Part shown: positions 1 to 30,008 of the stretch, one piece after another
How positions within the stretch are numbered: the first letter of the stretch is position 1
How the letters are laid out: each line of letters starts with the position of its first letter
Source: Fistulifera solaris
Lineage: Eukaryota
DNA: 64,000 nucleotides
Assembly (NCBI GenBank): GCA_030295235.1
Contig: AP026134.1
Coordinates: 310,001-374,000, forward strand
Reading direction: 5' to 3'
The notes under the pieces: model-generated
Database searches by the model: none
Seen by the model: only the letters and a program-made list of their open reading frames with translations
Told to the model about the DNA's origin: nothing
Program-made: the position numbers and the translations under genes

Positions 1-2
1 TC

Positions 3-1947
3 TCCCGACGCCAAAAACGCGACCTGCCGACCGCCACACGGCCGTCGTCTAGCAAAAAGCCCAAAACACCCACATTGCAAAGTAATGTCATTAACTTACA
101 AGGTTTAGTACATGCCATGGAGAATAATAATAATACCGAAGGGACGGAAGCCGCATTAGCGTTCCGTGTCGAACGATGTCAGTTGTTGTGGAATCAAGTC
201 GCCGAAGAATTGCAACGGGTCGATCCAGAACATTATCAATCCTTGCAACAACGCGTCCAGAAAGTCTGCCAGGGCAGTAAACCACCTTCTATTCCTCCTA
301 CAATTCAACGAATCTTCTTGGACTCCTCATTTAACCATACTCCGGCTATGGAAAGTGAACCGAACGATGGGACCGATCTGAGTCAAGATAACGACATTTT
401 GGAGACGATTGAACCACTTCGACCCAAGAAGGCCGTCGTCGATGTTTCCGAAATGCAAAAACAACAACACGAACAAATGCAAGAAGCCATCTCACAAATG
501 GCGTCACAACTGAAACGAGAAACGGCCCGCATCCATTCGACCTTACAACAACAAACCGATCAATTGGACGAAATGGAAGATCTGGTGACAGAAAATGCTA
601 CCAAAGTCACGGATTTGACGAAAAATGTCCAAGAGCATGTGGAGAAAGGATGGAGAAAAACAATTGGGACATGGACCTTGGTGTTCACCGTGGCGGGAGC
701 GTTTCTGTTCTGTATGGTGACGATTTCTATGGTACCCAAACGACAAGGGACGTGTTTGTTCTTTTGTGCGAAAACAGACGATCAATATTGTCGGATCTTA
801 CCGGGAGGACGTCAGGAATGTATACCGGTCGCGGAAATCAATGTTGGAAAACAACAAGCCAGCGAATGTACGGTGGATGGCGAGTGCATGGAAAATCATA
901 AGGAAACAAATCAGCGAGACGCACGATCCGCTGTCAATGTATTCGCCGAAGAAGCGGCCATCGATGAAATTGATCCAAATATTCCCTTCTACAATGGCCG
1001 ACCTTTTTCGGGAAAAGAAATACGCAAAGCCGCTGCGGGGGTGATTTGCGAGCCTTGTCGGCCATGGTGGAGATGAAGCCAGAATTCATCGATGCACAAG
1101 ATTCGAATGGATGGTCGGCTTTGCATCTTGCGGCTCGATCCGGTCATGAAGACATTGTGCTCTACTTGTTAGACCATGGATGTAATGCGGTAGTGGAAAC
1201 CAGCAACGGGCGCACTGCACTCGATATTGCCTACGGAAAGCACGGAGCGGATCATCCCGTATCCAAATTGCTCGAGGAACTGTTCGAAAGTGGTTCCACT
1301 CCGAATGGCCAGCGTGAAGCCAAACAGCCACCAACGGGGAGGACATTCGGAGCGCGTCACAGACTGGAAATTTATCGCAACTGATGGAAATGCTTTTGGC
1401 TGCCCCCGATCTCATCGATGCGCAAGATAATAACGGCTGGGCCGCGATTCATCTTTCGGCGCGGGCTGGTCATACACCTGTCATTCAGTATTTGATAGAA
1501 GCTGGTTGCCAAACGCAAATCAAGACGAAGAGTGGTGAGTCTGCACTAGCGATTGCTGTTCGGGCGCTGGGCCATGATCATGCTATTGTGCATATGCTAG
1601 CGGCACGTCCGGATGCCGAACCAATGGTCCAGGGACGAATTTTTACCGAACATGATGTTCGTCTCGCTGCACAGCAAGGGAATCTAGAGCTATTGAAAGA
1701 GATGGGCGCCATCAAGCGAAAGTGGCTAGAAAGTCATGATGAAAATAAATGGGCCGCGTTGCATCAGGCAGCCCGAAGTGGGCACCTGGAGATTGTTGAG
1801 TATCTCCTTGAGCAAAGATGTGATCCAAACGCGCTAACGAAAAGTGGCAGCACGGCTTTGGATATTGCTAAAAATCTTCATGGAGACGATCATCCTGTTG
1901 TTACCTTACTTATGGAAAGCCAACGATTCCAACATACGGAATTGTAA
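3..1947 (+). CDS. Use1-like (Qc) SNARE fused to C-terminal ankyrin-repeat modules, ending HTEL; probably 5'-truncated by the window; two apparent frameshifts (~1040, ~1345-1383)
   Basis: The frame is open from base 3. It contains a coiled-coil SNARE-like helix (QHEQMQEAISQMASQLKRET...), a TM segment (WTLVFTVAGAFLFCMVTISMV) and a Cys-rich linker. Three similar modules with DxNxWxA(L/I)HxxARxGH...(T/S)ALxIA ankyrin motifs follow across ORFs 1046-1384 and 1384-1947. The C-terminus is QHTEL. Confidence 0.7.
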
Positions 1948-2065
1948 ATGCAGTTGTGAATAAGAGTTAAATGTGACATATTAATAAACGGATATCAAGG
2001 GAAAAAAAGCATTTGATTTTTTCGGGTACTACAGAATAATATTCCGTCGTCCGTTTCCAGACGCA

Positions 2066-3388
2066 TTATGCGGTAGACAATGTTGTCACTTTCCGCTGTT
2101 CTGCGTTCCATCGGCGTCCTCCCACGATTTTGCCGGCGAGTAGCTTTTGCGCCACGTTACACCGCATGATCAAAATGTTGCCGTCTAACTTATTTGGATG
2201 CAAAAGTGTGTCAGCATTCTTCCTCCAGACGACCCAACGTCGACAAGTCGGATGTCCTGGGGGTCCCGATCGATCGTTCGCTCGATCTTGACCTTTCGTT
2301 TCTTTGTAGGCACATTTGAGGCAGCAAGGTGGTTGTGCGTATCCTAATCGCGCAAAGAAGCACATTTCGACAAAAAGTTCCTGCAGTTGCTGTTCGTCAA
2401 AATCGACAGCGCCATTCCATAAATCTTCTGGTTCAAGGATGCCATGTGACTTGTCACCGGATCTAGCCGTATCCGTATTCTTAGTTTCGTCATCCGAAAA
2501 CTCGATAGGTAGAGTTTCGATTTGGTTACTGCCCCAACTCACTCGACCCTTCGAATGACTCTTTTTTCGCCCGCTCACAGTTGTTTCGGTCATGATGGAA
2601 TTCGCGTCTCGATCGACTATTTGCTTTATCTTACTTTTCTTTCGATGGGCAATGTCGTCCAAGTACTTACTGATTCTTTGTATGTAAAAGTCGGATCTGT
2701 ATTGTTTCAGAAGCTGTTGAAAATGCTGATAATCTTTTTGACTTAGACGTCCCTTCTTTTGAAAATCGTCCAGTCGCTGAAATAAGGCTAATACTTCCTG
2801 ATGTTGTAGTAATCGGGGGTCTTCCTTCCAATGGGGTCGACTGGTTGGCGAGTTGGGTAGGCTGGTTGTTGGTGTTTCGACTTGAATGGGATCGCTTTGG
2901 TAGTCTCCTGTGTCTTTCTCCAAATAATTTGTTTGTTGGACAGAGGCCGACTTTACTGACTTGGAAGAAAACGACCTGGCTGCTGGTAGACTATAGATTG
3001 TTGATTTCGGGGTTCCTTCGGTGAATGATTGATACGATGAACTCGTGTCGCTGTCAAAACTGGATAGAACGTAGAGGTCCGATATATCCGAATAACTCTT
3101 TGCTGACGGAATTGACACTTCTTCTGACGAATCAAAGGAAGATGCTAAAGTGCTGCTGTCCTTGATGACGATTTCAAATACGTCTGGACTAGGACGATGC
3201 ACGAATGATTTATGGCGCACTTCCTTCGGCTGATCCTCTTCTTTCAATGCCGCTTCTTCGACACTTTCCTCAACTGACAATCTCCGGTCTTTTCTCCAAA
3301 AAGGAACTATTATTTTCTTTGCCAAAGGACGACGTTCATGGATCACCAACAAGGAGGACTTGCCATTGCCACGGGTTTTCCGGACCAT
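2066..3388 (-). CDS. Hypothetical protein; Ser-rich N-terminus and compact Cys-containing C-terminal domain
   Basis: Uninterrupted 440-aa ATG ORF. The C-terminal FVEMCFFARLGYAQPPCCLKC...CRRWVVWRK region looks folded. Confidence 0.7.
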   Translation of the reverse strand: MVRKTRGNGKSSLLVIHERRPLAKKIIVPFWRKDRRLSVEESVEEAALKEEDQPKEVRHKSFVHRPSPDVFEIVIKDSSTLASSFDSSEEVSIPSAKSYSDISDLYVLSSFDSDTSSSYQSFTEGTPKSTIYSLPAARSFSSKSVKSASVQQTNYLEKDTGDYQSDPIQVETPTTSLPNSPTSRPHWKEDPRLLQHQEVLALFQRLDDFQKKGRLSQKDYQHFQQLLKQYRSDFYIQRISKYLDDIAHRKKSKIKQIVDRDANSIMTETTVSGRKKSHSKGRVSWGSNQIETLPIEFSDDETKNTDTARSGDKSHGILEPEDLWNGAVDFDEQQLQELFVEMCFFARLGYAQPPCCLKCAYKETKGQDRANDRSGPPGHPTCRRWVVWRKNADTLLHPNKLDGNILIMRCNVAQKLLAGKIVGGRRWNAEQRKVTTLSTA

Positions 3389-3732
3389 GTCGATCAGGTT
3401 TTTTCAAACTGTCAATGCGAGCAAGGAAAGCCTTTTCCAATTTCCGTTGGCGATGATCGAATACAACATGCTAGTTTCTTCCATTGGACTTCTACAAGAA
3501 TGTATACTTTTAAAAGAGACTTTGAAGTACATAAACCGAAAAATTGAACGGACATTTTGCACGTTTCATGAATAAGTAACGAAAAACCGTTCAATCTTGT
3601 GAACGGATTTCATTTTGATACAAATGCGATCCGAATAACCACTCGGTTCGCATAATACTCGGGTACATAGCACCTTCCGTCATCGCTATTCCATCGCGAA
3701 CAGCGATTTTCGTCTAAGTGTCTTGCAGTATT

Positions 3733-5858
3733 ATGGAGGGTCGCGCTTGGTGTGAAGAATAGAATGATTTTAGAAGGCACATCCGATCCGACGTTCCGTG
3801 GCCACCATCATCAAACAGTCATTGCCTCAAGAACTAGTTACGAGGAAGGCAACCAAAAAGCCGACATGATTGTTGCCTCGCAGAAATCGCCTGTGAAGGC
3901 TTCTCCAGTGCGTCTGGATGCTGGCAAAGCATTCACGTTTGATGGAGCAAATGCCGGTGGTTTTCATTTGTCTGCCGAGTCAGATGTACGTACATAAATA
4001 TGTTTTTGACAATAATCCGGTCACCCAAATACCCACTTTCTAATGCTCTGTATTTTTGTTTCGTCAAGGACTCGAAAATTGACAAGCGTCAGGTTGACGT
4101 CGATCAAGGCGAGTATCTATCAAACAACGTGAGCGGTCTTTCGTCGGGGTGGGAAGAGAGAGATGGTAGTGTCGAACACAGGGAAGGCTGGGCCGATGAT
4201 AACGCTTGGGATCGCAAACAGGAACGCGACGCTCCTCCCATTGCTCCGGCTGCCAGTGATGCTCTAGAGAAAATTCGGGAAATGCGTCAGATTTTGGAGG
4301 CCGATCCGACTCTGAAAGAATCTTTGTCCAAGACTGAGAGTATGACGCTGTCAAAGAATGACTCCAACCCGGAGCTTTATCCGTATGTCTTTCGCAAAAC
4401 ATCGAGCAATGCTTTGGACGCCCTGCGAGCCGTACGAATGCAATTGGAGGCGAACAAAGATGTCGCCAAGGCCGTCTCCGAAACTATGCATGGTACACCT
4501 CGTAAGGGTTTACCCCTCGTTCTCCTGCCAAACATTTGGCAGACCGCTCCTTTCCGAAAAGTAACGGCACTGATGCTTTGCAGTCTTTGCCGGAATCCTT
4601 GCCTCAATCGGCTCGTGAAAAGGAGTATGACCAAGATGGTGGGGAAGATGAAGTTGCTGACGATCGAAGTGTTGCATCTCTAGTCGGTCCGCCACCACCA
4701 CCCCCGCCCATCGACATGAATCGGTCCGAAGGAAGCGTTTTCAAGGAAAGCAGTCTGGTGCGCATTCCCATTGAGCCTATGTCGCCTTCCGCGGGTGTAA
4801 ATACTACACGTGACGAGCAAAGGCTCGTGAGTCCGCGTAATGTTGAAGAGCAGGGCACTGTCGACCCTGAATCAGATGTACGCCCTCGATCCAGTAAGCC
4901 AGGAAGAGGGAGACTATCCATTAAAAAGTTGTTCAAAAAGGGTGTGGTTAAAGCGGAACCAGAGGCGCGGTTGCTATCCCCGGATCCGACTCCCAGTGAT
5001 GAGAGCAATCAACAAGAATTGAATGCGGCAGAGGAAGAAGATGTTCAAGATCCAAGTGTGGAGGTTATTCTAAAAGGATATGTCGCTCCGGAAGAGATTG
5101 AAGAAACCTGCCATTCGAGAATCCGTCGCCGAGGCGTCAAAAGTCTTTTCAAGAAATTGGGAAGGAAGAACAGAGCTGAAGTGCCTGATAAAAGTCCTGA
5201 GACAGTCAGTGGAAAAGAAGAAACTACGAGTGGTCAAGTGGACAACGGAGAAAGTTCCCAGCGCCTGTTTTCGTCGGACTCCTTTATTAATGAGGGAACA
5301 GTGAACATGGACAACCATAGGGTCGATGCCGTAGATGACGACGACTCTGTCGGACCGGCACCTTATGGCGAATCCTCTGGTGTCGGGGACCGTAATAAGG
5401 TGGTAGAAGCCGACGAAGATCCCTTCCAAGAAATTATCAACAGACACAGACCGACGTTTGCCCCTGTCGAACCAGAATCGGTCGACACCTTCGACATTGT
5501 TAACGACCTAGATTTTGAATCTCGTAGGCTGGACATTGATGTTAGAGAAATCGAACGTAAGATGAAGCAAAAGCGTGCCACTGATGCGTCGACTTCATCT
5601 TCGCGGGTACCTGTGGCGTTGGCCGGTACAGCGGGTAAGAAAGTGGGGCATATGCCAAGTACAGCCAGTGTGAAATCATCTCGAACGACCAAGAACACCA
5701 GAACTAGCAAAAACCGTCCCACCCCTAACATGACACCGAAAAAGCCTGCAGTCTACTATAGTGGTAAACTTGCAGGGAATGCAGGAGCTACACAGAGAGG
5801 AGACCGAGGAAAGTACAGAGATGATCATATGTCGTTTACACGATGGCCTCAAGAATAA
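3733..5858 (+). CDS. Hypothetical low-complexity/disordered protein (intron ~3987-4068, probable frameshifts)
   Basis: Consecutive same-strand ORFs 3752-3997, 4000-4683 and 4536-5858; GTACGT...AG intron candidate; acidic/Pro-rich composition; no recognisable domain. The start is uncertain. Confidence 0.55.
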
Positions 5859-6030
5859 TCTCTCACATTAGACTTCTGAACGAAAAAAGTAAATACATTA
5901 CGTAGTCTTCACCCTCTATAGGATGTAATATATTCCGTTTCCCAGGAGAATATCTGGTTCATAATACAATCATGCAATTAGAAATAAGAAAATGTGACCT
6001 TAAGCACTATTTTATCTACTCCGTATAAAT

Positions 6031-9000
6031 TTAATCTCCTAGACACAACACATATACACGCCCAAGTCTTTCCAGCTCTTCGATTCCTGCTAATCCATCT
6101 GGGCCATCTCCTTGGTAGTCTCGTCCTCGTCCGGCTTTTGAACTGACCATGTGAAGCGTGGAAGCCAATAATTCTCGAGCCTCTTCACCGAGAAATTTCT
6201 TCAACGTTGAGCGCAGAAAATCGAGCTCGTTGGCAAGACGATCGGCCTGCCGCACCCTTAACTTCATGCGTCGCTTAGAAATTTCATCACAAATACCCTC
6301 AATGACACCATTTGCAACAGTTTTCATCGCCAAGTGCTGGTATTGTAAGTTAGCTGCCTTACGTATTTTCTCCCCGACAGCTTGCTCGACTTGGGCGCGG
6401 CACCGCACGATAGCTAATAGCGATGCAGAAAGGTATGCGGGAAAAGCGTCTTCTTTGTCTTCTTCCTCTTTATCGAGCCATCCAACCTTAACGCTTTTCG
6501 AAACGGTGTGCTTGATGCTGTCGAGGTATTCGTCAAACATTACATTCTCGAGACCGGTGATCTCCTCTCTCATTACTTCTTGTAAAGTATCGGTATTTGG
6601 TGTCAAAGGCATACTTTCGCGGACAACATCATCGAGACGATCTGCCAGCACATCAGCGCATTCAGCCACAGCAATAAGGCGAGCCGCATCGCCTCTATCT
6701 CTAACGTAAGAGGCTAGACCTTCACAACAGCGCCTGATGACAAGTTCGCAACCCTTCTCTACCTCCGAAGCACACTGATCAGGCCTTGAAAGCTGTTCGC
6801 TCAAGTTTTTCAAACACTGCGACAAAGTGTCTGTATCAAACTTGCCACTCCCACTGGCGCGATTCGAGCAAGCGCGGGCACATACATCAAACGCGTAAAT
6901 GCACCGACGTTTTTCAATCGTCACGACAGCGCTATCACCAAGCGACTTACAATCGTCAAGAAGACTGAGTGTGAAGACGCTCGTGGTGTTGTTTTGAAGT
7001 GCGCGTGCACTGCCTGAACTTTCGGAAAGGAGTGTGACAAGATCTGCCAATTCTTTGCCTACCTTAGTGCTTTGAGAGGGTGGCAACGGCGATCTTATTA
7101 ACGCATGTAACTTTTCGTTCGCACTTTGCCCAAAAAGTCATCCGAACATCCTTGGCACCACTCCTCGTATTGCTACCTATCGCACAGAATGTCGCATGTT
7201 CAACGAGATTTTTTAAGGGTGGAGAGATATCACGGACAAAGACATCGAGAGCAGTCATATTTGCCGTCTTGGTACTGTTTCGGCCTTTGGCAGCCCGGCG
7301 CTTTTCCTCTTCCCGAGCTGCCTGAGCAACAGCCAACAATCGTGGCAACCAGCGTCGTGCTAACGTTACTGCTTTCATTGTCGCTACGACGCGAGCATCA
7401 AGGACATCATACTTCCATTGGTTTCCTTTTTCGCATCATCACTATCATCAGCGAAAATTCGTTGACAGGCGTCATCCGTATTGTTGATTACTTGTTTCAC
7501 TCCTTGAGAAAAGTACGCGGCTTGCAGCAAAAGGCAAGAAAGAGCGGGATGATAGTCTCGGACCTGGATCTTAGTTCCTCCGATATCAAAACACCCATCT
7601 AAAGTAGGATCAAGGTCACTTTCCGATGAAGGGGGTAATGTTGGAACGTCTAGTTCAAGCAAATCACTCAAATCCCGAATGCCGCCCATGAGATCATCAA
7701 TCGATACTGTGTCTTGAGCAAGTCGTAACTCCAGGTCACGTCTAGCTTCTAGAACACATTGCTCAGCTTGCTTCTTGACGTGGTTCAACAAAGCAATTTG
7801 GCAGTTATCCCCAACCACAAGAACGCGACGAAAAGTCTTTAGAGCCTGTGAGTAGCGTCGATTTTCCAAGTGCTGACGCATCAAAGAAGGAACTTGTAAA
7901 ATTGGCGCAACTCGGTGCAATACAGAAATGGCACTTTGCACCTTGCGGACTTCAGACGTATTATCAAGCAAAGGCTTGAAAGACTTTTTGGCTTGAAAAG
8001 CACATGATTCTGCAATCGCTTCAAGCTTTCCGATTCGTTCGTGAACGCCCATTCCTACCTCGTTCTCACTGTTGCGCCGAAATTCTTCAAAGCCCTCCGC
8101 GCATCGTACAAAGAGTGGAAAATTCTCCCTCACGAGATTTTGCAGCTGTTCGGCTTGATTTTCCGTTTTACCTGCGGTGCAGTAGTTACACGACGAAATG
8201 ATTAGCAGTGTCATCGACGAGAAAGAAGGAACGAAATGACGATGTATACTTACTTGAAAGACGCCCCATCGAACCCATCAAAGCGTCGTAAGAAGTCTTC
8301 CGATGCACTAGAGTTAAAAAGAGCAGCGGATCGAATTTGGGGTGCGACGGTAAAACCGAATGTGTGGCATTCTGTGGGTTCTCCATCATTTCCAATCCCC
8401 CCATTCGTTCAACCAATGCCTCCAAACTCTCCTTCTGTGCGGCTGCCGTACGAACCAACTCTTCACTGCCAGCCGACTCGGCCTTTTGTATCTCTTCTTG
8501 TAAATCATGTAGAGCCTGCTCCATTTGTTCTGCCATATTTAGTTCAACTTGTCGTAGATCAAATTCTTGGTCATTGATAAGGCCGAGCGGATCTTTTCCG
8601 ACCAGCTTATCTCTCACTTCCTCACGTTCGGCCGCTTCCTGGGCCGCATCTTGGGAATCGCGGACGCTCTGATGCTGTCCCGCTCGATTCGCGGAAGCCG
8701 CCCAGGCGCGCTGTTCACGAGCCAGCTGACTGTCTTCCCATCGAGCGGCAACCCCTGTTTGGCGCGGATCTCACCACGACCTTCCGCTTGCTTCAATTCC
8801 TTCCGTAAATTCTTCTGACGTTTACGAAACGCCGCCATGATATCATCCGAGTCACCATAATCCTGATCACTGCCTTCCGATCCATCGTCTTTCTCGTGAT
8901 CGGACTCGGCGGCATCACTGTCGTCATCATAATCTTCCTGTACACCACCCCCGAGTGCCTTGTTTGCAAGCATGTCTTGACGTTGCTGCAGGGCGAGTTC

Positions 9001-9576
9001 GGCTTGACGGGCCGTCGCACTCTTCTTAATTTTTTCTTGCACCGACGCCGAAGTCGAGTTGGCCAGCCAAATTTCGAATTCTTGCTGCGCGATCGGTCTG
9101 GTAATCAATTCTTCCATCATGAGTGGTTGGGCCTTTTCTCCATCTTCGGAACGATGTTCCGTGAGAATGAGGACAATCACTTGACACGCTTCTTCTTTCG
9201 CACCACCTCGATCACCTTTGCGATCGTCACAATGAAAATCCAAGCCCATGTATTGATACTGCTGCGGATTGAGACACAAGAAACTGGTCTTGAAGGGATT
9301 CGGTGCATCGGAATTTTTGTTCCAATCCAGGAGCAGCCATTTGAGCAACGTCATGGCGTGACGCGCGGATCGTTTGAGGGTGCCGTCGTGTTCACCAGAC
9401 GGTGTTCCGCAGGCTTGTAAGAGACCGTACAACCCCGCGAGGATTTCTACATCGTCCGGATCATCGAGAGAAGCGGCCGGAGCCGCGCTGCCCAAGAATA
9501 ATAAAGGAATATCATCGTCGTAAAATTCGGGAGTGGTTCCTTTCTGTGAAAGGTTTAGTTTTGAATAATCATTCAT
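6031..9576 (-). CDS. SEC5: Exocyst complex component Sec5/EXOC2-like
   Basis: KDPLGL, FDPLLFLTLVH and LQNLVRENFPLFVRC motifs typical of the Sec5 domain. Intron 8172-8253 (GTAAGT...CAG) joins the frames. Frameshifts near 8640, 7385 and 7085. Confidence 0.8.
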
Positions 9577-23190: not shown

Positions 23191-23907
23191 TTAGTATGCT
23201 CGTATCTCTAGAATCTCAAGATCCACATCCCCTATCGCGAATTTGGGATTCAGTTCTCCGCCGTACTCAAACTTGGAATAAATTAGTTGTATGCCAACCA
23301 CATTGCTTCGATTCAGTTCAACACCATTCACGACTGTCGCAAACTTGGTGGGCGTCAGTTTGTCAAAGGGGACTCGTATCTTTTTGGTGGTCGTGGGTAG
23401 GTCGAAACTGGCGGCCCACACCAAGCCATTGAAATCGGTGCTATCGCGAATACCGACTTTGAAGCGGCTTACCGATGGGCCCGTCCTTCGACGGAGCGTC
23501 AGTTCCAAACCCCGACAAGAACTCAGATCCCAGTTAAAGTTGGGTGTATTGCGAATGCCGATAAAGCCACCATTGTTCGCATCCGTCACGGTGCCCTTCC
23601 ACACACCATTCGCGAAAGGTAGACGACGAGGCTCCTCCCATGACGACATCATCGAGCCGGTGCAAAGGTAAAGGTCGGTGTAGAGGCTTTCCACAGTACA
23701 TCATTCGGTCTCACGAGCTGCTTGGACGCTTTGGAGGAGAATGGAGTAGGAACGAACTTGGAGGACTGGGACACGAAACGAAACACGTCCCAGGGCTTGC
23801 GTTCCTTGCTGGCCAAAGCTGTCGACGACTGTACGGCACGTTTCTTATTCGGGTAGAAAAGCCCGAGTCGAAGAGGCAAGAAATAATATTAAAAGGAAAC
23901 GGTTCAT
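23191..23907 (-). CDS. Plastid-targeted CIA30-domain (complex I intermediate-associated protein 30-like) protein
   Basis: ATG at 23907 gives MNRFLLILFLASSTRA|F (signal peptide + F). Then PWDVFRFVSQSSKF, DDVVMGGAS, NNGGFIGIR and YSKFEYGGELNPKF. About three single-base frameshifts. Confidence 0.8.
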
Positions 23908-23958
23908 GATGGTATACATCTCTTCGCCGGGTGGCAAATGCTGTGAGTTTTGTGACGG

Positions 23959-24131
23959 TGTTGATATCTATAAAATCAAAGTCAGCAACAAAAGTGTTCT
24001 ACGAATTAATGAGCATAATGTTACTCGATTGCGAAGGCGAAGGAAGTGAAGTCCTGGATTCGAGGATATCTGGGATTGCCTGAGGCGCTCGTCACTTATG
24101 GGTGTCGCAGTGGCTACAGGCATAATCAATA
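23959..24131 (-). repeat. 3' LTR (173 bp)
   Basis: Matches 29518-29691 except for one 3-nt and one 2-nt indel. Confidence 0.96.
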
Positions 24132-27100
24132 CACCCTCACCTCGAATCGCAGAGTCGGGAACGGATATAGCAACATCCTGATGAGGAGAGATGGCTTCGT
24201 AATAAGACGTAGATGAATTGTCTTGAAGATACATTGGACGCATTGTGCGATGATGGGAAGTAGCATGATGCTTAGTGAAGTAATCCGCTTTGTTTCCAGC
24301 GCCAGCCTTCCAGTACACATGAAATTGACCTTGGCGAACACGGTCGCTGAATCCAATAGAATCGCATATCCATAGCCTTGGAGCGCTTTTGTTTGACTTT
24401 GTCATTGACAATGCCCGCAGCAGTGCTGTTGTCAGTTTGGATTGGAGTGGCAGGTTGGGGATGGCCCATTTCCTCCAAAGCGACACGTAAAGGACATGCA
24501 TTTTGGCGATTGAGAAATAACGCACCAAGTTCGGCTTCGGCTGCACTTGATACCACATGTTTCATGATTTGACAATAAACGGTGATGGCCATTGATGGGA
24601 GGAGAAGTCGGATCAGGAAGTTTGGTGGGATCGGAACTCAAAAAATAATAACCAGCCGCACGGGACCTCGCCCGGACACACTGAGATAAGAAGCATCGCT
24701 GTCGATCCACAATACCATGTCACTTGCCCGATAGCGAACAACGCCAGATGGGTGAGATGCACAATAATTTAGTAACTGCGTTAACGTCTCCATGGTCTTC
24801 ATTGTAGGCTGGGCTTGACACGCTGCAATGGAACCCAACGCCGGTAACATTGTGCAGTCGATGGCCCGAGCATAATATAATAGAACGCCAAGGATTTGTT
24901 GCAACAAATTAATGTTCTTGGCATCCAAGTAAGGCGTGTTGTCAGGGGCTTCTGCATACTGCGTTTTGGCCCCGTCGTAGGCTGCTGCCACGGGTGGGGC
25001 GAATCCTCGGGGCGGCCGGTTGGCGTGGGGTGTTGAAAACGAGTCAAGGCTCGTTCGATGTACCCAGGCATGGACAAGTCGACAGTGCGGTTGTTGTAAT
25101 CCCAATCAAGATTCAAGCCGACGTACCGAGAACCAGACCAATCTTCGGATAACCGATAACCAGTGTCGCTGAAGAGTTTGAAGGAGCCGATGGACATCGC
25201 GATCATCCGTGTATTTGACGGCAAAGTCATCCACAACTAAGGTGAAGGTTAGATCCGAACGGGAATCACGCCACAAGCCATGAGTATGTGGGACTGGATG
25301 ATACCCATGAGGAGCTAAGCGGGCAATAAGTTGATCGTTAGCCAATTTGCCGGCTTGGGGAAGTCCATACATGCCTTTGCTGACTGCAGCATACACGAAT
25401 CCATTGTGTATCAGTGGTTCCAGATTGTAGTGATCGATGATGTGCTGGGACAAAATGCTAACGGGAATGCGAATGTATTCCAAATTGCCCAAGATGGTTC
25501 CCAAATAATAGTCTTTGAGGTCCAAAGTCATCATTTTAGCCCCGGGTGTGGACAAGACACTATTGAAAAACAACTTGGCGGTTTCCAGCGCGGCGGTTTT
25601 GGTAGATTTGTCTCCGGCAAAATATATTTGATCGCCACCAATACACCAACGGACGCGGAAAGGATTTTCTTTTTCCGGACGGTAAGCACACACCACGAAC
25701 GTACGCTGCACGCATACCTTTGGGGATATCCTTGATGGAGATAAAATGAATAGTGTTGGACCCCCGGAATATGGCGGAAGCCTTGGGCTAAACGGTGAAC
25801 CTCTTCGTCGTTGCCGTTGACCCATTGTGGACCATCAGACGACCGACTTAGCTCAGGAAACTCAGCGACCTTGCCAGTGTCCGGGTTGAGCGCATTGCCA
25901 TGTAAAGCGTGATGAAGAAAAGATGAATCAACATCGGGTGGGCCAAGGAGAGTGGCAGAAGCTGCAAGTTCAACGGTCTTATTGGCTCGAGTGCCGTGAT
26001 GATGTTGGGGGCGCCTGACGGTGATTGCGATGAGGTTTGGTCTTCGTCTTGTGGCGTGGGCGACGACGGGTTACCGTTTTGAAGGGAGTGTCAACCGACC
26101 GGAAGTGTTGGGGCGATGCGGCAGGGTCAACTGGGACATCCGGGGGCGAAAGTAACGGATTTGCGACGGGGTGCTGGTGGAGGCATGCTGGGTGGTGAGC
26201 ACGGCGGAGACGGCCGAAACAGGGACCACAGAGGGGGGCTCCCGATAAGGCGTCGACCAGAGTTTTTAATTCGGCAACGTGGCTATCGGTGGTAACTGGA
26301 AGAGGGGAAGTGATGGATGTAGTGCGCAACGCCCTGAGTGACATCGCGGGAGGCCGGCCAAAAGAAGATCGGAAGCCGAAGGCGGTGGGCATGGTGACGT
26401 GTTCCGGGAACCATTCCAAGGTGTCGGTAATGCGTTCCATTTTGGTATCCCATATCCAGACGCTGAAAACACCGATATGACTCGAGTGCAGGCCCAAGAT
26501 ACCAGCCCTCGACAGCATGTGGCGCCCAAGTGGTACGTTGTCCTGGCTTTTCGTGAACCAATACCTTGGTGCCTGGGGGCCCAATTGGGGTTCGATCGAA
26601 ATTGAATGCACCATAGACTTGGGCATAAGCTGAAAGTTTATGATTGATTCGAGAAGTGCGAAGAAGGTTGAGGGTAAGTAGCGCCTGGGGCAATAACCGA
26701 TCCCAAAGATGAATGGGGAAGTTGCGGTCTGTGCTGCACAATCCCGCAATGAAATGATTTTGAAAAGTGCGGATGGCACGTTCGAGGCGTTGCGGCGATG
26801 CACATGAGGCGGCGTAAGTTGAAAATCAATGCCAGCGTCCGCCATGAACTCTTTCAATGAAAGGTCACATTCGTTGTCCAAGCGATGTAAACGGGGCTTA
26901 AGACCGGCACGGCATAAGGTAGCGTGGACGGTTTTGAAAGCTGTTAAGATATCCGAAGCTTTGCGACTGGCGATGGGCTCAGCGAAGATGCAGTTGCTGT
27001 CATAATCATACATGACGAACAGATAGTTGTTACCGGTGCTGGAGAGGGCCGGAAAACGTCCGGTTTGGTCGCTATATGTCTGGCCAGTGGGCTGGATTAT

Positions 27101-28253
27101 GCCGGCATAACAATGGTGAGAGCGCTCCGCGTCCGGTTCCGGGAGGGGGAAAAGCGTCATCGAGCACGGCTGCCTCATTATCTGCAGGGGCGGACAAAAT
27201 ACCAGGGCTTAGTGGAGCGAAGGTTTTTTCGCGAATTTGGTCCATATGTCCCTTAGCTGTGGCAACAGAGATGGGCGGATGCCGACGAAGCGCGTCGCGC
27301 GAAAGACCAGGGAAATGAGGCAATAAATCGCGTTGGAGAGCAACATCCAAAGTGGATAATGCCGGAGAAAAGAGTGCCGCATGTGCAAACGCCACCAAAG
27401 AGGCGGGAGTGGTGATGGAAACGCTGGCGTTAGCCGACTCGGAAAGCGAAGCCGAGTCAACCGGAACTGGAGTCACGGGTGACGTGTCAGCACCCTCAGA
27501 CACCGCCAAAGATAGGGACGGTGACGAGGCACCCTCAGACATGGGGGCAGATGAAACGTTGGGACACCGCTCACACACAGACAGAAACGGGCGACCATCA
27601 CATGGCGTAGGGTGCGACACACCCTCAGACACCGCCACAGGGGACAGAGCAGAGGAGCACGGCACATCCACCGACACCGCCAAAGCATCGGTCAGCGGAG
27701 ACGGGGATGGGTCCCCCACAGACACCGCCAGGGTGTTAAGGGCAACGGCGGTGCACGGGCGCACCCCTCAGACGTCGGGAAGGGGAGGAAAGAGGCAACG
27801 TCCACAATTTAGTGATGGGGCGAGCGCAAGCCAGACAAGATAACTGCATTGTTGTAATAGACATGAATAGCCTGCGCGAGTGAATTCGACATGACAGCCG
27901 GCATCGCATAACTGCCCAATAGACAATAGTGGTTTCGTGTGCAGATCGGGGGACAATGTGGGCCCGCCGAGCAGAGAGTGGCAAACCTGGTAACGAAAGG
28001 ATTGCATCATGAGTGGAATGCATGAGCGTACCATTGGGATTGGCAATGGTGATGGGGTTGGCTGTTGGCAAGCATGATTCGACAGGTGTGTCAATGGGCA
28101 AAAAGTGACTGGTGCACCCGGAATCGGCAATGCCATCAGTAACAGGGGGAAACGAGGGCGGGAGGACCTACAGTAGAAACATTAAAGGCAGACTCAGATG
28201 GTTTAGTATCTTTATCGTTCTTTGTAATGTGTACCGTAGGCTTCCCCCATCCC
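23968..28253 (-). CDS. pol: Copia pol (aspartic protease, integrase, reverse transcriptase, RNase H), fragmented by many frameshifts
   Basis: Protease IADSGCTSHF (~28120). Integrase YSDQTGRFP...LDNE...HRRNA. RT LDLKDYYL, KGMYGLPQAG and VVDDF. RNase H SDASYL, SAAEAE, TDNSTA, KAMDMRFYW and ADYFTKHH. The last frame runs into the 3' LTR. Confidence 0.92.
24132..24142 (-). other. Polypurine tract (AGGTGAGGGTG) abutting the 3' LTR
   Basis: Purine-rich run immediately upstream of the 3' LTR in element sense. Confidence 0.75.
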
Positions 28254-29392
28254 TCATGCTTGAGCAGTAGGAGCAACCGGCGTGGGGAGAAGCCCGGCGG
28301 CCACCGATGTTGATCTTGTTGCTGCCCTTGGTATGCTTGGCGGACTTGAGTGTGGCAGAGTGAATGTGTCCGTCCGCAGGGTGGTTGCATGTCTTGCTGG
28401 TATGTTCGGCGTTCATGCCAAGGCCATGCGTCCAACAATAATACATGCGGAATCCGCCTTCAGCGACCACTTCGTACGGATTCGTAGGTGCGGGAACCGT
28501 GGCACTGGCAGCGGCTAACTGGGGAACAACCGCAGGTGCCGGTGAGACCCCAGGAGGGATCACACTACCGGCCGAATTGGCATGATGATACCCAGCGACG
28601 GAGGTGGTAAGATGTTCCTGGAGGGCCTCATGTTCCTCAGTAAAGTAGTTCATGAAGTTGTCATATGTCTTCTCCGCGGCCGGCAGCCAAGCGTCGCAAG
28701 CGGACTGAAGAGTGCCGTGACCTGCAGTTTGAAAGAGAAGAAGGGTTTGATCCATCACGAGACGATCAGACAAAGGCTCCTCCGCAGCAATGGCGAAATC
28801 CCGGATCTCGACATGACGATTCCACAATGCCTGAATAGGCTGATTCGGTGTCCAAGCGGAGGCGAGACTGAGTCGATTGGCTTCAATCTCGGCTGCAGTG
28901 ATCTTGGTAAACTTATCTTTCAAATAGACTACCATCGCGTAGGCCGACACCCGCCCTGTTTCCAAATTGACACGGCCCAATCCAATCTCGGTGCCACGAA
29001 GAGACATCATGTAAATGGGATCGACGGCGGCGATGATTTGTTGGCGGAGCAGCTGATGGACGTACTCCTGGCGCAAGTAATCTTCAATCGCCGTGTCGTA
29101 GGCGATTAGCATCTGCACGCTGTGCACTTGTGGCATTGGCAGGGTAGGGGACAAGGGTGCCCGGATGGGTGAGAGGTTGAAAATCATGCCCGGTGAGTTC
29201 GCGAAACTCCTCACCAGAAAGGAGAAGACCGACATGGCCATGAGTGCCGCCCCAATGCGTAGACGGGACGGACAAAGCGTTGGCGATGACCTCGCTGTAT
29301 AAGCGATCGACGGTGGCGTAGGATGGTTTGCCCTTGATGGGAGTGAGATGCTCGTGTGGCACTCGAATGGAGGCAGATGAAAAGTCAGTCAT
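28254..29392 (-). CDS. gag: Copia gag
   Basis: LTPIKGKPSY, WGGTHGHVGL and the Cys/His motif YYCWTHG...HTSKTC...GH. Frameshifts between ORFs 29084-29446 and 28168-29241. The stop is uncertain (28254 or 28168). Confidence 0.8.
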
Positions 29393-29504
29393 GGTGATGA
29401 CACGGAGAGCACGCTTGTGCGGGATAAGAGAATGCGACGATGGCACCGGTGATAGCGACGCTGGCTAACCGAGAGAATACACTGAACGTGATGATAAGAA
29501 CGGG

Positions 29505-29517
29505 AATTCAGTAGAAC
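29505..29517 (-). other. Primer-binding-site position (GTTCTACTGAATT), non-tRNA type, complementary to LTR segment 29555-29566
   Basis: Directly follows the 5' LTR, lacks TGG, and pairs 12 of 13 nt with AATTCGTAGAAC in the LTR. Confidence 0.6.
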
Positions 29518-29691
29518 TGTTGATATCTATAAAATCAAAGTCAGCAACAAAAGTGTTCTACGAATTAATGAGCATAATGTTACTCGATTGCGAAGGAAGC
29601 GAAGGAAGTGAAGTCCTGGATTCGAGGATATCTGGGATTGCCTGAGGCGCGTCACTTATGGGTGTCGCAGTGGCTACAGGCATAATCAATA
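29518..29691 (-). repeat. 5' LTR (174 bp), termini TATTGAT...ATCAACA in element sense
   Basis: Direct repeat of 23959-24131, flanked by TSD GACGG. Confidence 0.96.
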
Positions 29692-30008
29692 GACGGATGA
29701 TGATGCAAGAAAACGGACGAGAAAAAATCGCGAGGATGAGTCATGTACCATCGTACCGGTTTTGTAATTACAAAATACCAACTACTGTTTGAGTACGATC
29801 AGACATCTAAGCTTATTCTACATGTCCGCGTATTATCAACAACTAATCACTCCCAACTTCAGGTCTAAATACAAGGTACTCCGAGTAACTCGATTCTCAA
29901 TATTGACATCATATGACGGGAAACCGATTGCTCTGATCACGGAGTCAACCATTAAAGATCAATTTCTATCGCTAAAAGAGATGTTTCTATTGACTCCGTC
30001 GACATTAT

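Follow-up and report, generated by a model that had tools for sequence, protein, structure and literature searches.

We found that a Copia-type element of 5.7 kb, lying on the minus strand of the 64-kb window (the whole stretch of DNA that was analysed), carries directly past its 5′ LTR a short site that is complementary to a segment of the same LTR. The complementarity is anchored at the first base past the LTR, the site abuts the LTR end exactly, the pairing is conserved with compensatory changes among related elements, and a site of the tRNA type is absent. The 3′ end of the LTR is where minus-strand DNA synthesis begins. A duplex that starts at this very point, that has its partner in the same RNA and that is maintained by compensatory changes in about 30 families is what one would expect of self-priming of the kind used by Tf1. 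Judging from sequence, we put at roughly 80% the probability that this is a diatom-type Ty1/copia LTR retrotransposon which primes its own reverse transcription in the manner of fission-yeast Tf1. The core idea of a first-pass annotation of this DNA, namely that the site pairs with the element's own LTR rather than with a tRNA, is supported by the family-specific arms and the covariation described below.

The window element and the duplex at its LTR end

Two direct repeats were recognised as LTRs by aligning them with one another (Table 1); the 3′ copy differs from the 5′ copy by two indels and about two substitutions. In element sense the LTRs start with TATTGA and finish with TCAACA, and the terminus of the 5′ LTR reads ...GATATCAACA, at 29518. 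Because a perfect 5-bp CCGTC duplication flanks the pair, both LTR borders are fixed independently of any hairpin. Both LTRs open with TATTGA (29686-29691 and 24126-24131) where the relatives have TGTTGA, so that the usual TG...CA ends have become TA...CA in the window element.

Table 1. Coordinates of the features of the window element; 'sense' refers to the element, which lies on the minus strand.
Feature	Position	Strand	Description
5′ target-site duplication	29692..29696	-	CCGTC in sense
5′ LTR	29518..29691	-	174 nt; from LTR-LTR alignment and target-site duplication
Initiator-like motif CTCATT	29567..29572	-	directly 5′ of arm 1; resembles diatom TCAH(+1)W
Arm 1, proposed self-primer	29555..29566	-	AATTCGTAGAAC in sense, within 5′ LTR
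Spacer, candidate R-U5	29518..29554	-	37 nt, from arm 1 to LTR end; strong-stop DNA would copy it
Arm 2, candidate primer-binding site	29505..29517	-	GTTCTAC-T-GAATT in sense; begins at first base past 5′ LTR
Internal region	24132..29392	-	gag, protease (DSG), integrase, RT/RNase H; from ORF map
Polypurine tract	24132..24143	-	GAGGTGAGGGTG in sense; adjoins 3′ LTR on its 5′ side
3′ LTR	23959..24131	-	173 nt; from LTR-LTR alignment and target-site duplication
Arm 1 copy in 3′ LTR	23996..24007	-	AATTCGTAGAAC in sense
3′ target-site duplication	23954..23958	-	CCGTC in sense; identical to 29692-29696

The gag ATG lies at 29392-29390, and at the other end of the interior the polypurine tract overlaps the conserved GEGVL codons with which pol ends. 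An integrase-like region (sense nt 2497-3723) is placed ahead of RT (3871-4596), which is the Copia order. The RT piece gave a weak RVT_2 match of 20.2 bits against a Pfam cut-off of 31.6, and the RT of the relatives, at 24.5-28.5 bits, also stays under that cut-off; the assignment to the copia type (RVT_2) rather than the gypsy type is weak but consistent. Pfam gave no match for the pieces of the window element that correspond to gag, protease and integrase. Taken together, the protease-integrase-RT order, the copia-type RT and the 5-bp target-site duplication point to membership of Ty1/copia. Between the protease and integrase regions there is also an imperfect 41-nt direct repeat (27642-27730; 48-nt spacing, 71% identity) encoding a reiterated Ser/Pro/Val-rich stretch that is absent from the relatives' consensus.

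As assembled, the window copy has a reading frame interrupted by many frameshifts and looks dead. A single public sequencing run, run X1, was found to contain the element, and its contigs differ from window positions 23700-29950 by 38 small indels (12 of them listed) and few substitutions. The frameshifts may be assembly errors rather than decay, or else run X1 may carry another copy. Run X1 is perhaps the source sample of the window assembly, and it bears on the bulge in the duplex described next rather than providing independent support for the element.

In element sense, positions 29517-29505 read GTTCTACTGAATT. This sequence abuts the 5′ LTR directly and has no TGG, just as the first-pass annotation had described it, to the base. 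It forms a duplex with arm 1 of 12 pairs over 13 nt, made up of 7 bp and 5 bp separated by one bulged T (+ strand 29510). Arm 1 itself starts 48 nt and ends 37 nt upstream of the LTR 3′ end, with GCTCATT (29573-29567) immediately 5′ of it. Its + strand sequence, GTTCTACGAATT, gave two matches in the window against a chance expectation of 0.34, and these fall at 29555-29566 and 23996-24007, so the earlier statement that both LTRs hold the pairing segment is correct. In a test with mononucleotide shuffles of the 174-nt LTR, in which the helix was anchored at the first post-LTR base and one bulge was allowed, 12 of 12 pairs were reached in 1 of 3000 shuffles and at least 11 in 18 of 3000. The pairing over 12 of 13 nt with one bulge that had been proposed is real as stated, and it is equalled by one shuffle in 3000. 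The bulge is missing from run X1, whose contig (depth 51.9) omits base 29510; because this base is absent, the site in run X1 is a perfect 12-nt complement of arm 1.

Conservation and covariation of the hairpin among relatives

Relatives were collected with a 409-aa integrase-containing piece of the window element as the query in a protein search. It matched 36 longer proteins at 33-55% identity, the sole named homologue being from the diatom Fragilaria crotonensis. An alignment of these proteins was then used in a single scan of metagenome contigs, giving 78 loci. Many of the related contigs are 5.1-5.9 kb long and circularly permuted or tandem, with a period equal to the element minus one LTR (for example L003, L005, L006, L008, L010, L016-L018, L020, L023, L025, L039, L049, L064 and L068); in L020, positions 1-3941 equal 5314-9254 at 99.9%. 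Such contigs may represent circles with a single LTR, tandem arrays or assemblies that have collapsed. A further contig (L015:1-7947) holds two head-to-tail elements, about 80% identical and sharing one LTR (1-2518 matches 5448-7947), and is either a tandem or a chimeric assembly.

The LTRs of these elements can be located from the protein-coding side. Pol has a conserved end, (G/C)EGV(L/F) or RGCV, and because its codons are the purine tract plus the LTR start (GAGGGTGTGTTGA), this motif anchors the LTR 5′ end across families. The corresponding stretch of the window (24120-24145) is at once coding sequence, plus-strand primer and integrase end, and in many families the pol frame continues into the LTR. 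Directly upstream of the LTR, GAGGGTGT(G/A)TT was present in 27 loci matched for the motif. When regions were displayed from the pol-end anchor to the gag ATG, all 24 loci and the window had the same layout: YCAT(A/T)A, an arm of some 12 nt whose sequence is specific to the family, a spacer of 21-61 nt (median 32 in the relatives), an LTR end of the TCAAYA type and then the arm's exact reverse complement.

Among the gag-matched loci the hairpin layout is present in 33 of 34, upstream of gag in 32 and, in L001, past the LTR at the other contig end; the 34th locus (L051) has only 88 nt of upstream sequence, too short to judge. The complementarity looked for in sister families is accordingly there, as the same anchored 12-bp duplex in 33/34 gag-matched loci. 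Its imperfect members are L018 (one bulge), L068 (one mismatch) and L077 (imperfect). A scan for perfect inverted repeats with arms of at least 10 nt and loops of 20-90 nt, run over all 328,604 nt of the loci, gave 67 matches, about 41 of which are of the shared-layout type. In a blind scan anchored on the purine tract, at least 11 of 12 pairs were reached in 28 of the 31 instances with enough downstream sequence, another duplex tying with or beating the expected one in about five (L017, L018, L046, L069, L077). Only 10 pairs were reached at L031, L059 and L075:3618.

Several loci lack the pattern. L059 is a decayed copy whose arm has decayed as well. At L069 and L075:3618 a 3′ LTR gives way to flank, a place in which a site would not be expected, and L031 consists of an LTR start followed by unrelated GC-rich sequence. 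In L066 the LTR region holds an array of the palindrome GTGCTAGCAC (3840-4000) in place of the usual single hairpin.

One relative, L016, holds both LTR ends. Its two LTR copies are identical up to ...CATCAACA, after which one continues into the arm complement and the other into unrelated flank. The last bases shared by both copies are thus ...CAACA, and arm 2 follows in one of them only; at the 3′ LTR plus flank the score of the covariance model described below is only 21 bits.

For an anchored count, 35 loci and the window were aligned on the junction between LTR and site. Offsets 0-11 were Watson-Crick paired in 31-36 of the 36 sequences and offset 12 in 9, percentages that are inflated by selection in that 32 of the 36 rows came from the perfect inverted-repeat scan; the unbiased figures are the gag-anchored tally (33/34) and the purine-tract-anchored scan. 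Because pairing holds at offsets 0-11 and drops at 12, the helix is one of 12 bp starting at the first post-LTR base, with a range of 11-15 bp among the perfect ones. In register, 11.7 of 12 positions pair, against 2.3-3.1 of 12 when the register is slid by 1-3. There are 30 distinct arms among the 36 sequences, with all four pair types at five offsets. When arm 1 was set against arm 2 of other families, the mean contiguous helix was 2.5 bp, and at least 10 bp was reached in 0.3% of 1242 combinations. A MAFFT alignment of all 36 regions left several rows 1-2 columns out of register and was not used for counts.

Compensatory change was assessed with a covariance model built from eight sequences with 31-nt spacers. 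A search with this model at E up to 1 gave 48 matches in all sources, including the new loci L063, L073 and L076; the same search gave seven weak antisense matches to known hairpins, as a symmetric helix would, and scored the window at 18.8 bits (E 0.49). The covariation count was made on 30 chosen sources, in which 29 matches had an E no higher than 0.004; these comprise 28 distinct rows, and the window row is not among them. Across these 28 rows, 98.8% of cells are paired, compared with 71.1% in shuffles (0/500 shuffles as high), and 11 of the 12 pairs are changed on both sides. Double-changed cells number 84 against 18.3 in shuffles, and the covariation score is 0.704 against 0.156 (0/500 in each case). 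An alignment to a covariance model is fitted to the structure and so favours it, but the slid registers of this same alignment are only 29-37% paired, and both these controls and the anchored count agree with the result. The comparison of site and LTR segment across relatives that the first-pass annotation had called for therefore yields compensatory changes in 11 of 12 pairs.

These data bear directly on whether the primer might be a host tRNA, or else an internal fragment of one as used by copia and Ty5, the match to the LTR being secondary. In favour of this is that tRNA priming is the usual state in Ty1/copia. Against it stand the 30 distinct sites in 36 sequences, each matched by its own LTR, none of which starts with TGG (0/36), and the covariation of 11 of 12 pairs, which one host tRNA pool cannot track. 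A shared tRNA primer is ruled out because the arms differ between families and the pairs change in compensation. Judged on the variation of the site and the missing TGG, priming by a tRNA or half-tRNA appears close to refuted, and we give it very little credence. ARAGORN found no tRNA genes in the 64-kb window.

Predicted RNA start and a proposed self-priming scheme

The 12-bp helix is present in the minimum-energy fold, with at least 9 of the 12 anchor pairs, of 31 of 34 sequences, whereas the stems inside the spacer differ among relatives. The TGTTG/CAACA inner stem proposed in the first-pass annotation does form in the window fold, but it is particular to the window copy, the spacers of relatives folding in various ways. 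Additional duplexes of the Tf1 type were not found when the spacer was compared with the 30 nt past the site (z averaged 0.04, and only one of 36 sequences fell under -2). A conserved KTT past arm 1 is paired with the AAY of the LTR end in some folds, with no consistent covariation by eye. This KTT belongs to a conserved A-Y-C-K-T-T directly past the arm (window 29549-29554, and 35 loci), in which A occurs in 30/36 and T at the sixth base in 35/36. The motif could provide a context for cleavage or a 3′-end signal.

On the other side of the arm, all 36 sequences have CA[TC] at a distance of 16-18 nt upstream of the arm's 3′ end, the distance being 17 nt in 25 of them; by eye the trinucleotide is CAT in 35 and CAC in 1 of the 36 tabulated, and the initiator-like motif sits 3-5 nt 5′ of the arm. 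The diatom initiator-like motif is given as TCAH(+1)W (PMC4686930) and that of oomycetes as TCA(+1)TTCC (PMC4368664), and the conserved YCAT(A/T)A of the relatives resembles both as they are described there. By this resemblance, transcription of the window element would start at about 29568-29569, 3-4 nt before the arm, which fits the 29566-29569 put forward in the first-pass annotation. The sharp end of the 12-bp helix would, however, be a better fit to a start at the arm's first base; in a few families the helix does extend to the motif (15 bp in L033 and 14 bp in L036). It seems that either the RNA starts at the arm's first base or the primer has a short unpaired 5′ tail. A start at the motif's +1 would leave 3-4 unpaired 5′ bases on the primer. 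Tf1 has no such bases on its primer, and they would be a handicap when the second strand is transferred.

On the self-priming reading, transcription would start in the 5′ LTR, at or just past the YCAT(A/T)A motif, and the next 12 nt (arm 1) would fold back over the 21-61 nt spacer to pair with the 12 nt past the LTR. Cleavage of the RNA would follow where arm 1 ends on its 3′ side, the RNase H of the element being the presumed enzyme, and the freed 3′ OH would be extended back through the spacer to give a very short strong-stop DNA, which would transfer to the repeat found at the RNA's 3′ terminus. Plus-strand strong-stop synthesis is known to copy tRNA primers, and the same is reported for Tf1. 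Plus-strand synthesis would here copy arm 1 in the same way, and each round would renew the site from arm 1. Such renewal would explain why the arms stay perfectly matched and yet drift between families. Within this scheme we infer where transcription starts, that the RNA is cleaved, which enzyme does so and that the site is rewritten.

A different view of the same structure is that the hairpin serves the 5′ leader as a conserved cis-acting feature, with a role in packaging, dimerisation, translation control or transcript stability, while something else primes reverse transcription. The data establish structure and conservation, from which priming is an extrapolation, and two observations speak for such a role: the extra duplexes of Tf1 were not found, and the conserved A-Y-C-K-T-T past arm 1 hints at further signals. 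It would leave unexplained, however, why the helix begins exactly at the point of minus-strand synthesis, in the window and in L016 alike, and past the LTR there is no other conserved candidate site (TGG starting 0/36). We consider a purely leader-based function unlikely.

The primer might also be self-derived but act in another geometry, either with arm 1 supplied in trans, whether by the second RNA in the particle or by a short transcript of the LTR, or with the 3′ end of the genomic RNA as the primer, which in that version would end at arm 1 of the 3′ LTR. Arm 1 is present in both LTRs and the present data do not separate cis from trans; moreover, the offset of 3-4 nt from the initiator-like motif is not explained by a simple cis model. 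The initiator-like motif that is conserved immediately 5′ of the arm nevertheless fits a primer at the 5′ end of the RNA, and a 3′-end primer would call for an RNA that lacks poly(A) and terminates precisely at the arm, with no repeat left over for strand transfer. These arrangements strike us as distinctly improbable, and folding back in cis from the 5′ end of the RNA remains the reading that we prefer.

Relation to known priming systems and significance

In copia, Ty5 and elements of the Osser/Bianca type, priming is by a half-tRNA and the site corresponds to a stretch inside a single tRNA (initiator Met or Ile). The elements described here are like them in that their sites do not start with TGG, but the site in those groups is conserved across families, whereas here it varies and tracks the LTR. 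Self-priming itself is proven for Tf1 and is common to the Tf1/sushi group of gypsy elements according to the available account (PMC10085805). As described there, the likeness to our elements is close: a site that directly follows the CA of the 5′ LTR can pair with about 11-12 nt of 5′ RNA from the element itself, and there is no tRNA site (PMC10085805). The two groups are otherwise distinct, since the order in Tf1/sushi is RT-RNase H-integrase with a chromodomain, while here integrase lies ahead of RT and no chromodomain was seen. Tf1 is also described as requiring a three-duplex 'pretzel' structure (PMC10085805); in our elements no 'pretzel' was found in the folds or in the pairing of the spacer with the 30 nt past the site, the loop is only 21-61 nt and the arm possibly lies 3-4 nt inside the RNA.

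Within Copia, self-priming has been predicted by sequence for the plant TAR lineage (Houba, Osr-1), which like the elements studied here is described as Copia-type and without a tRNA site (PMC6317226). The first-pass annotation had stated that copia elements normally use tRNA or half-tRNA primers; this holds as the usual state, but by that description the TAR lineage already stood as a predicted exception (PMC6317226). TAR is a land-plant lineage, and we liken it to the diatom clade by description, not by arm geometry.

A third point of comparison is offered by the fungal GalEa elements, in which a 'Conserved Hairpin Site' is reported to replace the primer-binding site and which the same report assigns to 'branch 1' of Copia together with the diatom CoDi elements (PMC5445492). 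They resemble our elements in being Copia without a tRNA site and in having a conserved hairpin that starts at the LTR end (PMC5445492). As that report describes it, however, the partner in GalEa lies 12-41 nt downstream and the first arm is palindromic and includes the LTR's last A, and its authors state that they found no complement in the LTR (PMC5445492). In the diatom clade the partner is upstream, inside the LTR, and the hairpin is thus not one of the GalEa kind.

With respect to the diatom elements already described, the 174-nt LTR and the missing TG lie within what is reported for CoDi4 families (PMC2806351), a comparison made with that description. The main text of the same paper, which defines the diatom CoDi groups, contains no mention of a primer-binding site, a tRNA or a hairpin (PMC2806351). 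Full-text searches of the literature available outside subscription journals turned up no report of self-priming in diatom Copia.

Self-priming in the diatom Copia clade therefore appears to be a known mechanism in an unreported place. It would represent a third, distant group with this solution, after Tf1/sushi, where it is proven, and the plant Copia lineage, where it is predicted. The compensatory changes seen in about 30 families are unusually clean evidence, which extends the range of groups known to prime independently of tRNA and is relevant to how primer use evolved in LTR elements. It also has a practical side, as LTR annotation pipelines that seek tRNA-type sites will mislabel such elements as site-less. 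The layout amounts to a simple, testable rule: motif, 12-nt arm, spacer, LTR end, complement.

Copia elements are the most abundant transposons of diatoms. A broader idea, which we put forward tentatively and think less likely to be right than wrong, is that self-priming, independent of tRNA and relying on a minimal primer of 12 nt and a strong-stop DNA only about 20-60 nt long, could be the general mode of a whole widespread diatom Copia clade instead of a peculiarity of one family, and that in this clade the site would be rewritten each cycle and so drive fast, concerted change of the two arms. If this is true, then taken with the GalEa hairpin it would suggest that hairpin or self-priming is old in 'branch 1' Copia and that the use of tRNA was a later gain. 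It would also mean that diatoms hold a retroelement system in which the choice of primer may be re-programmed by two matching edits.
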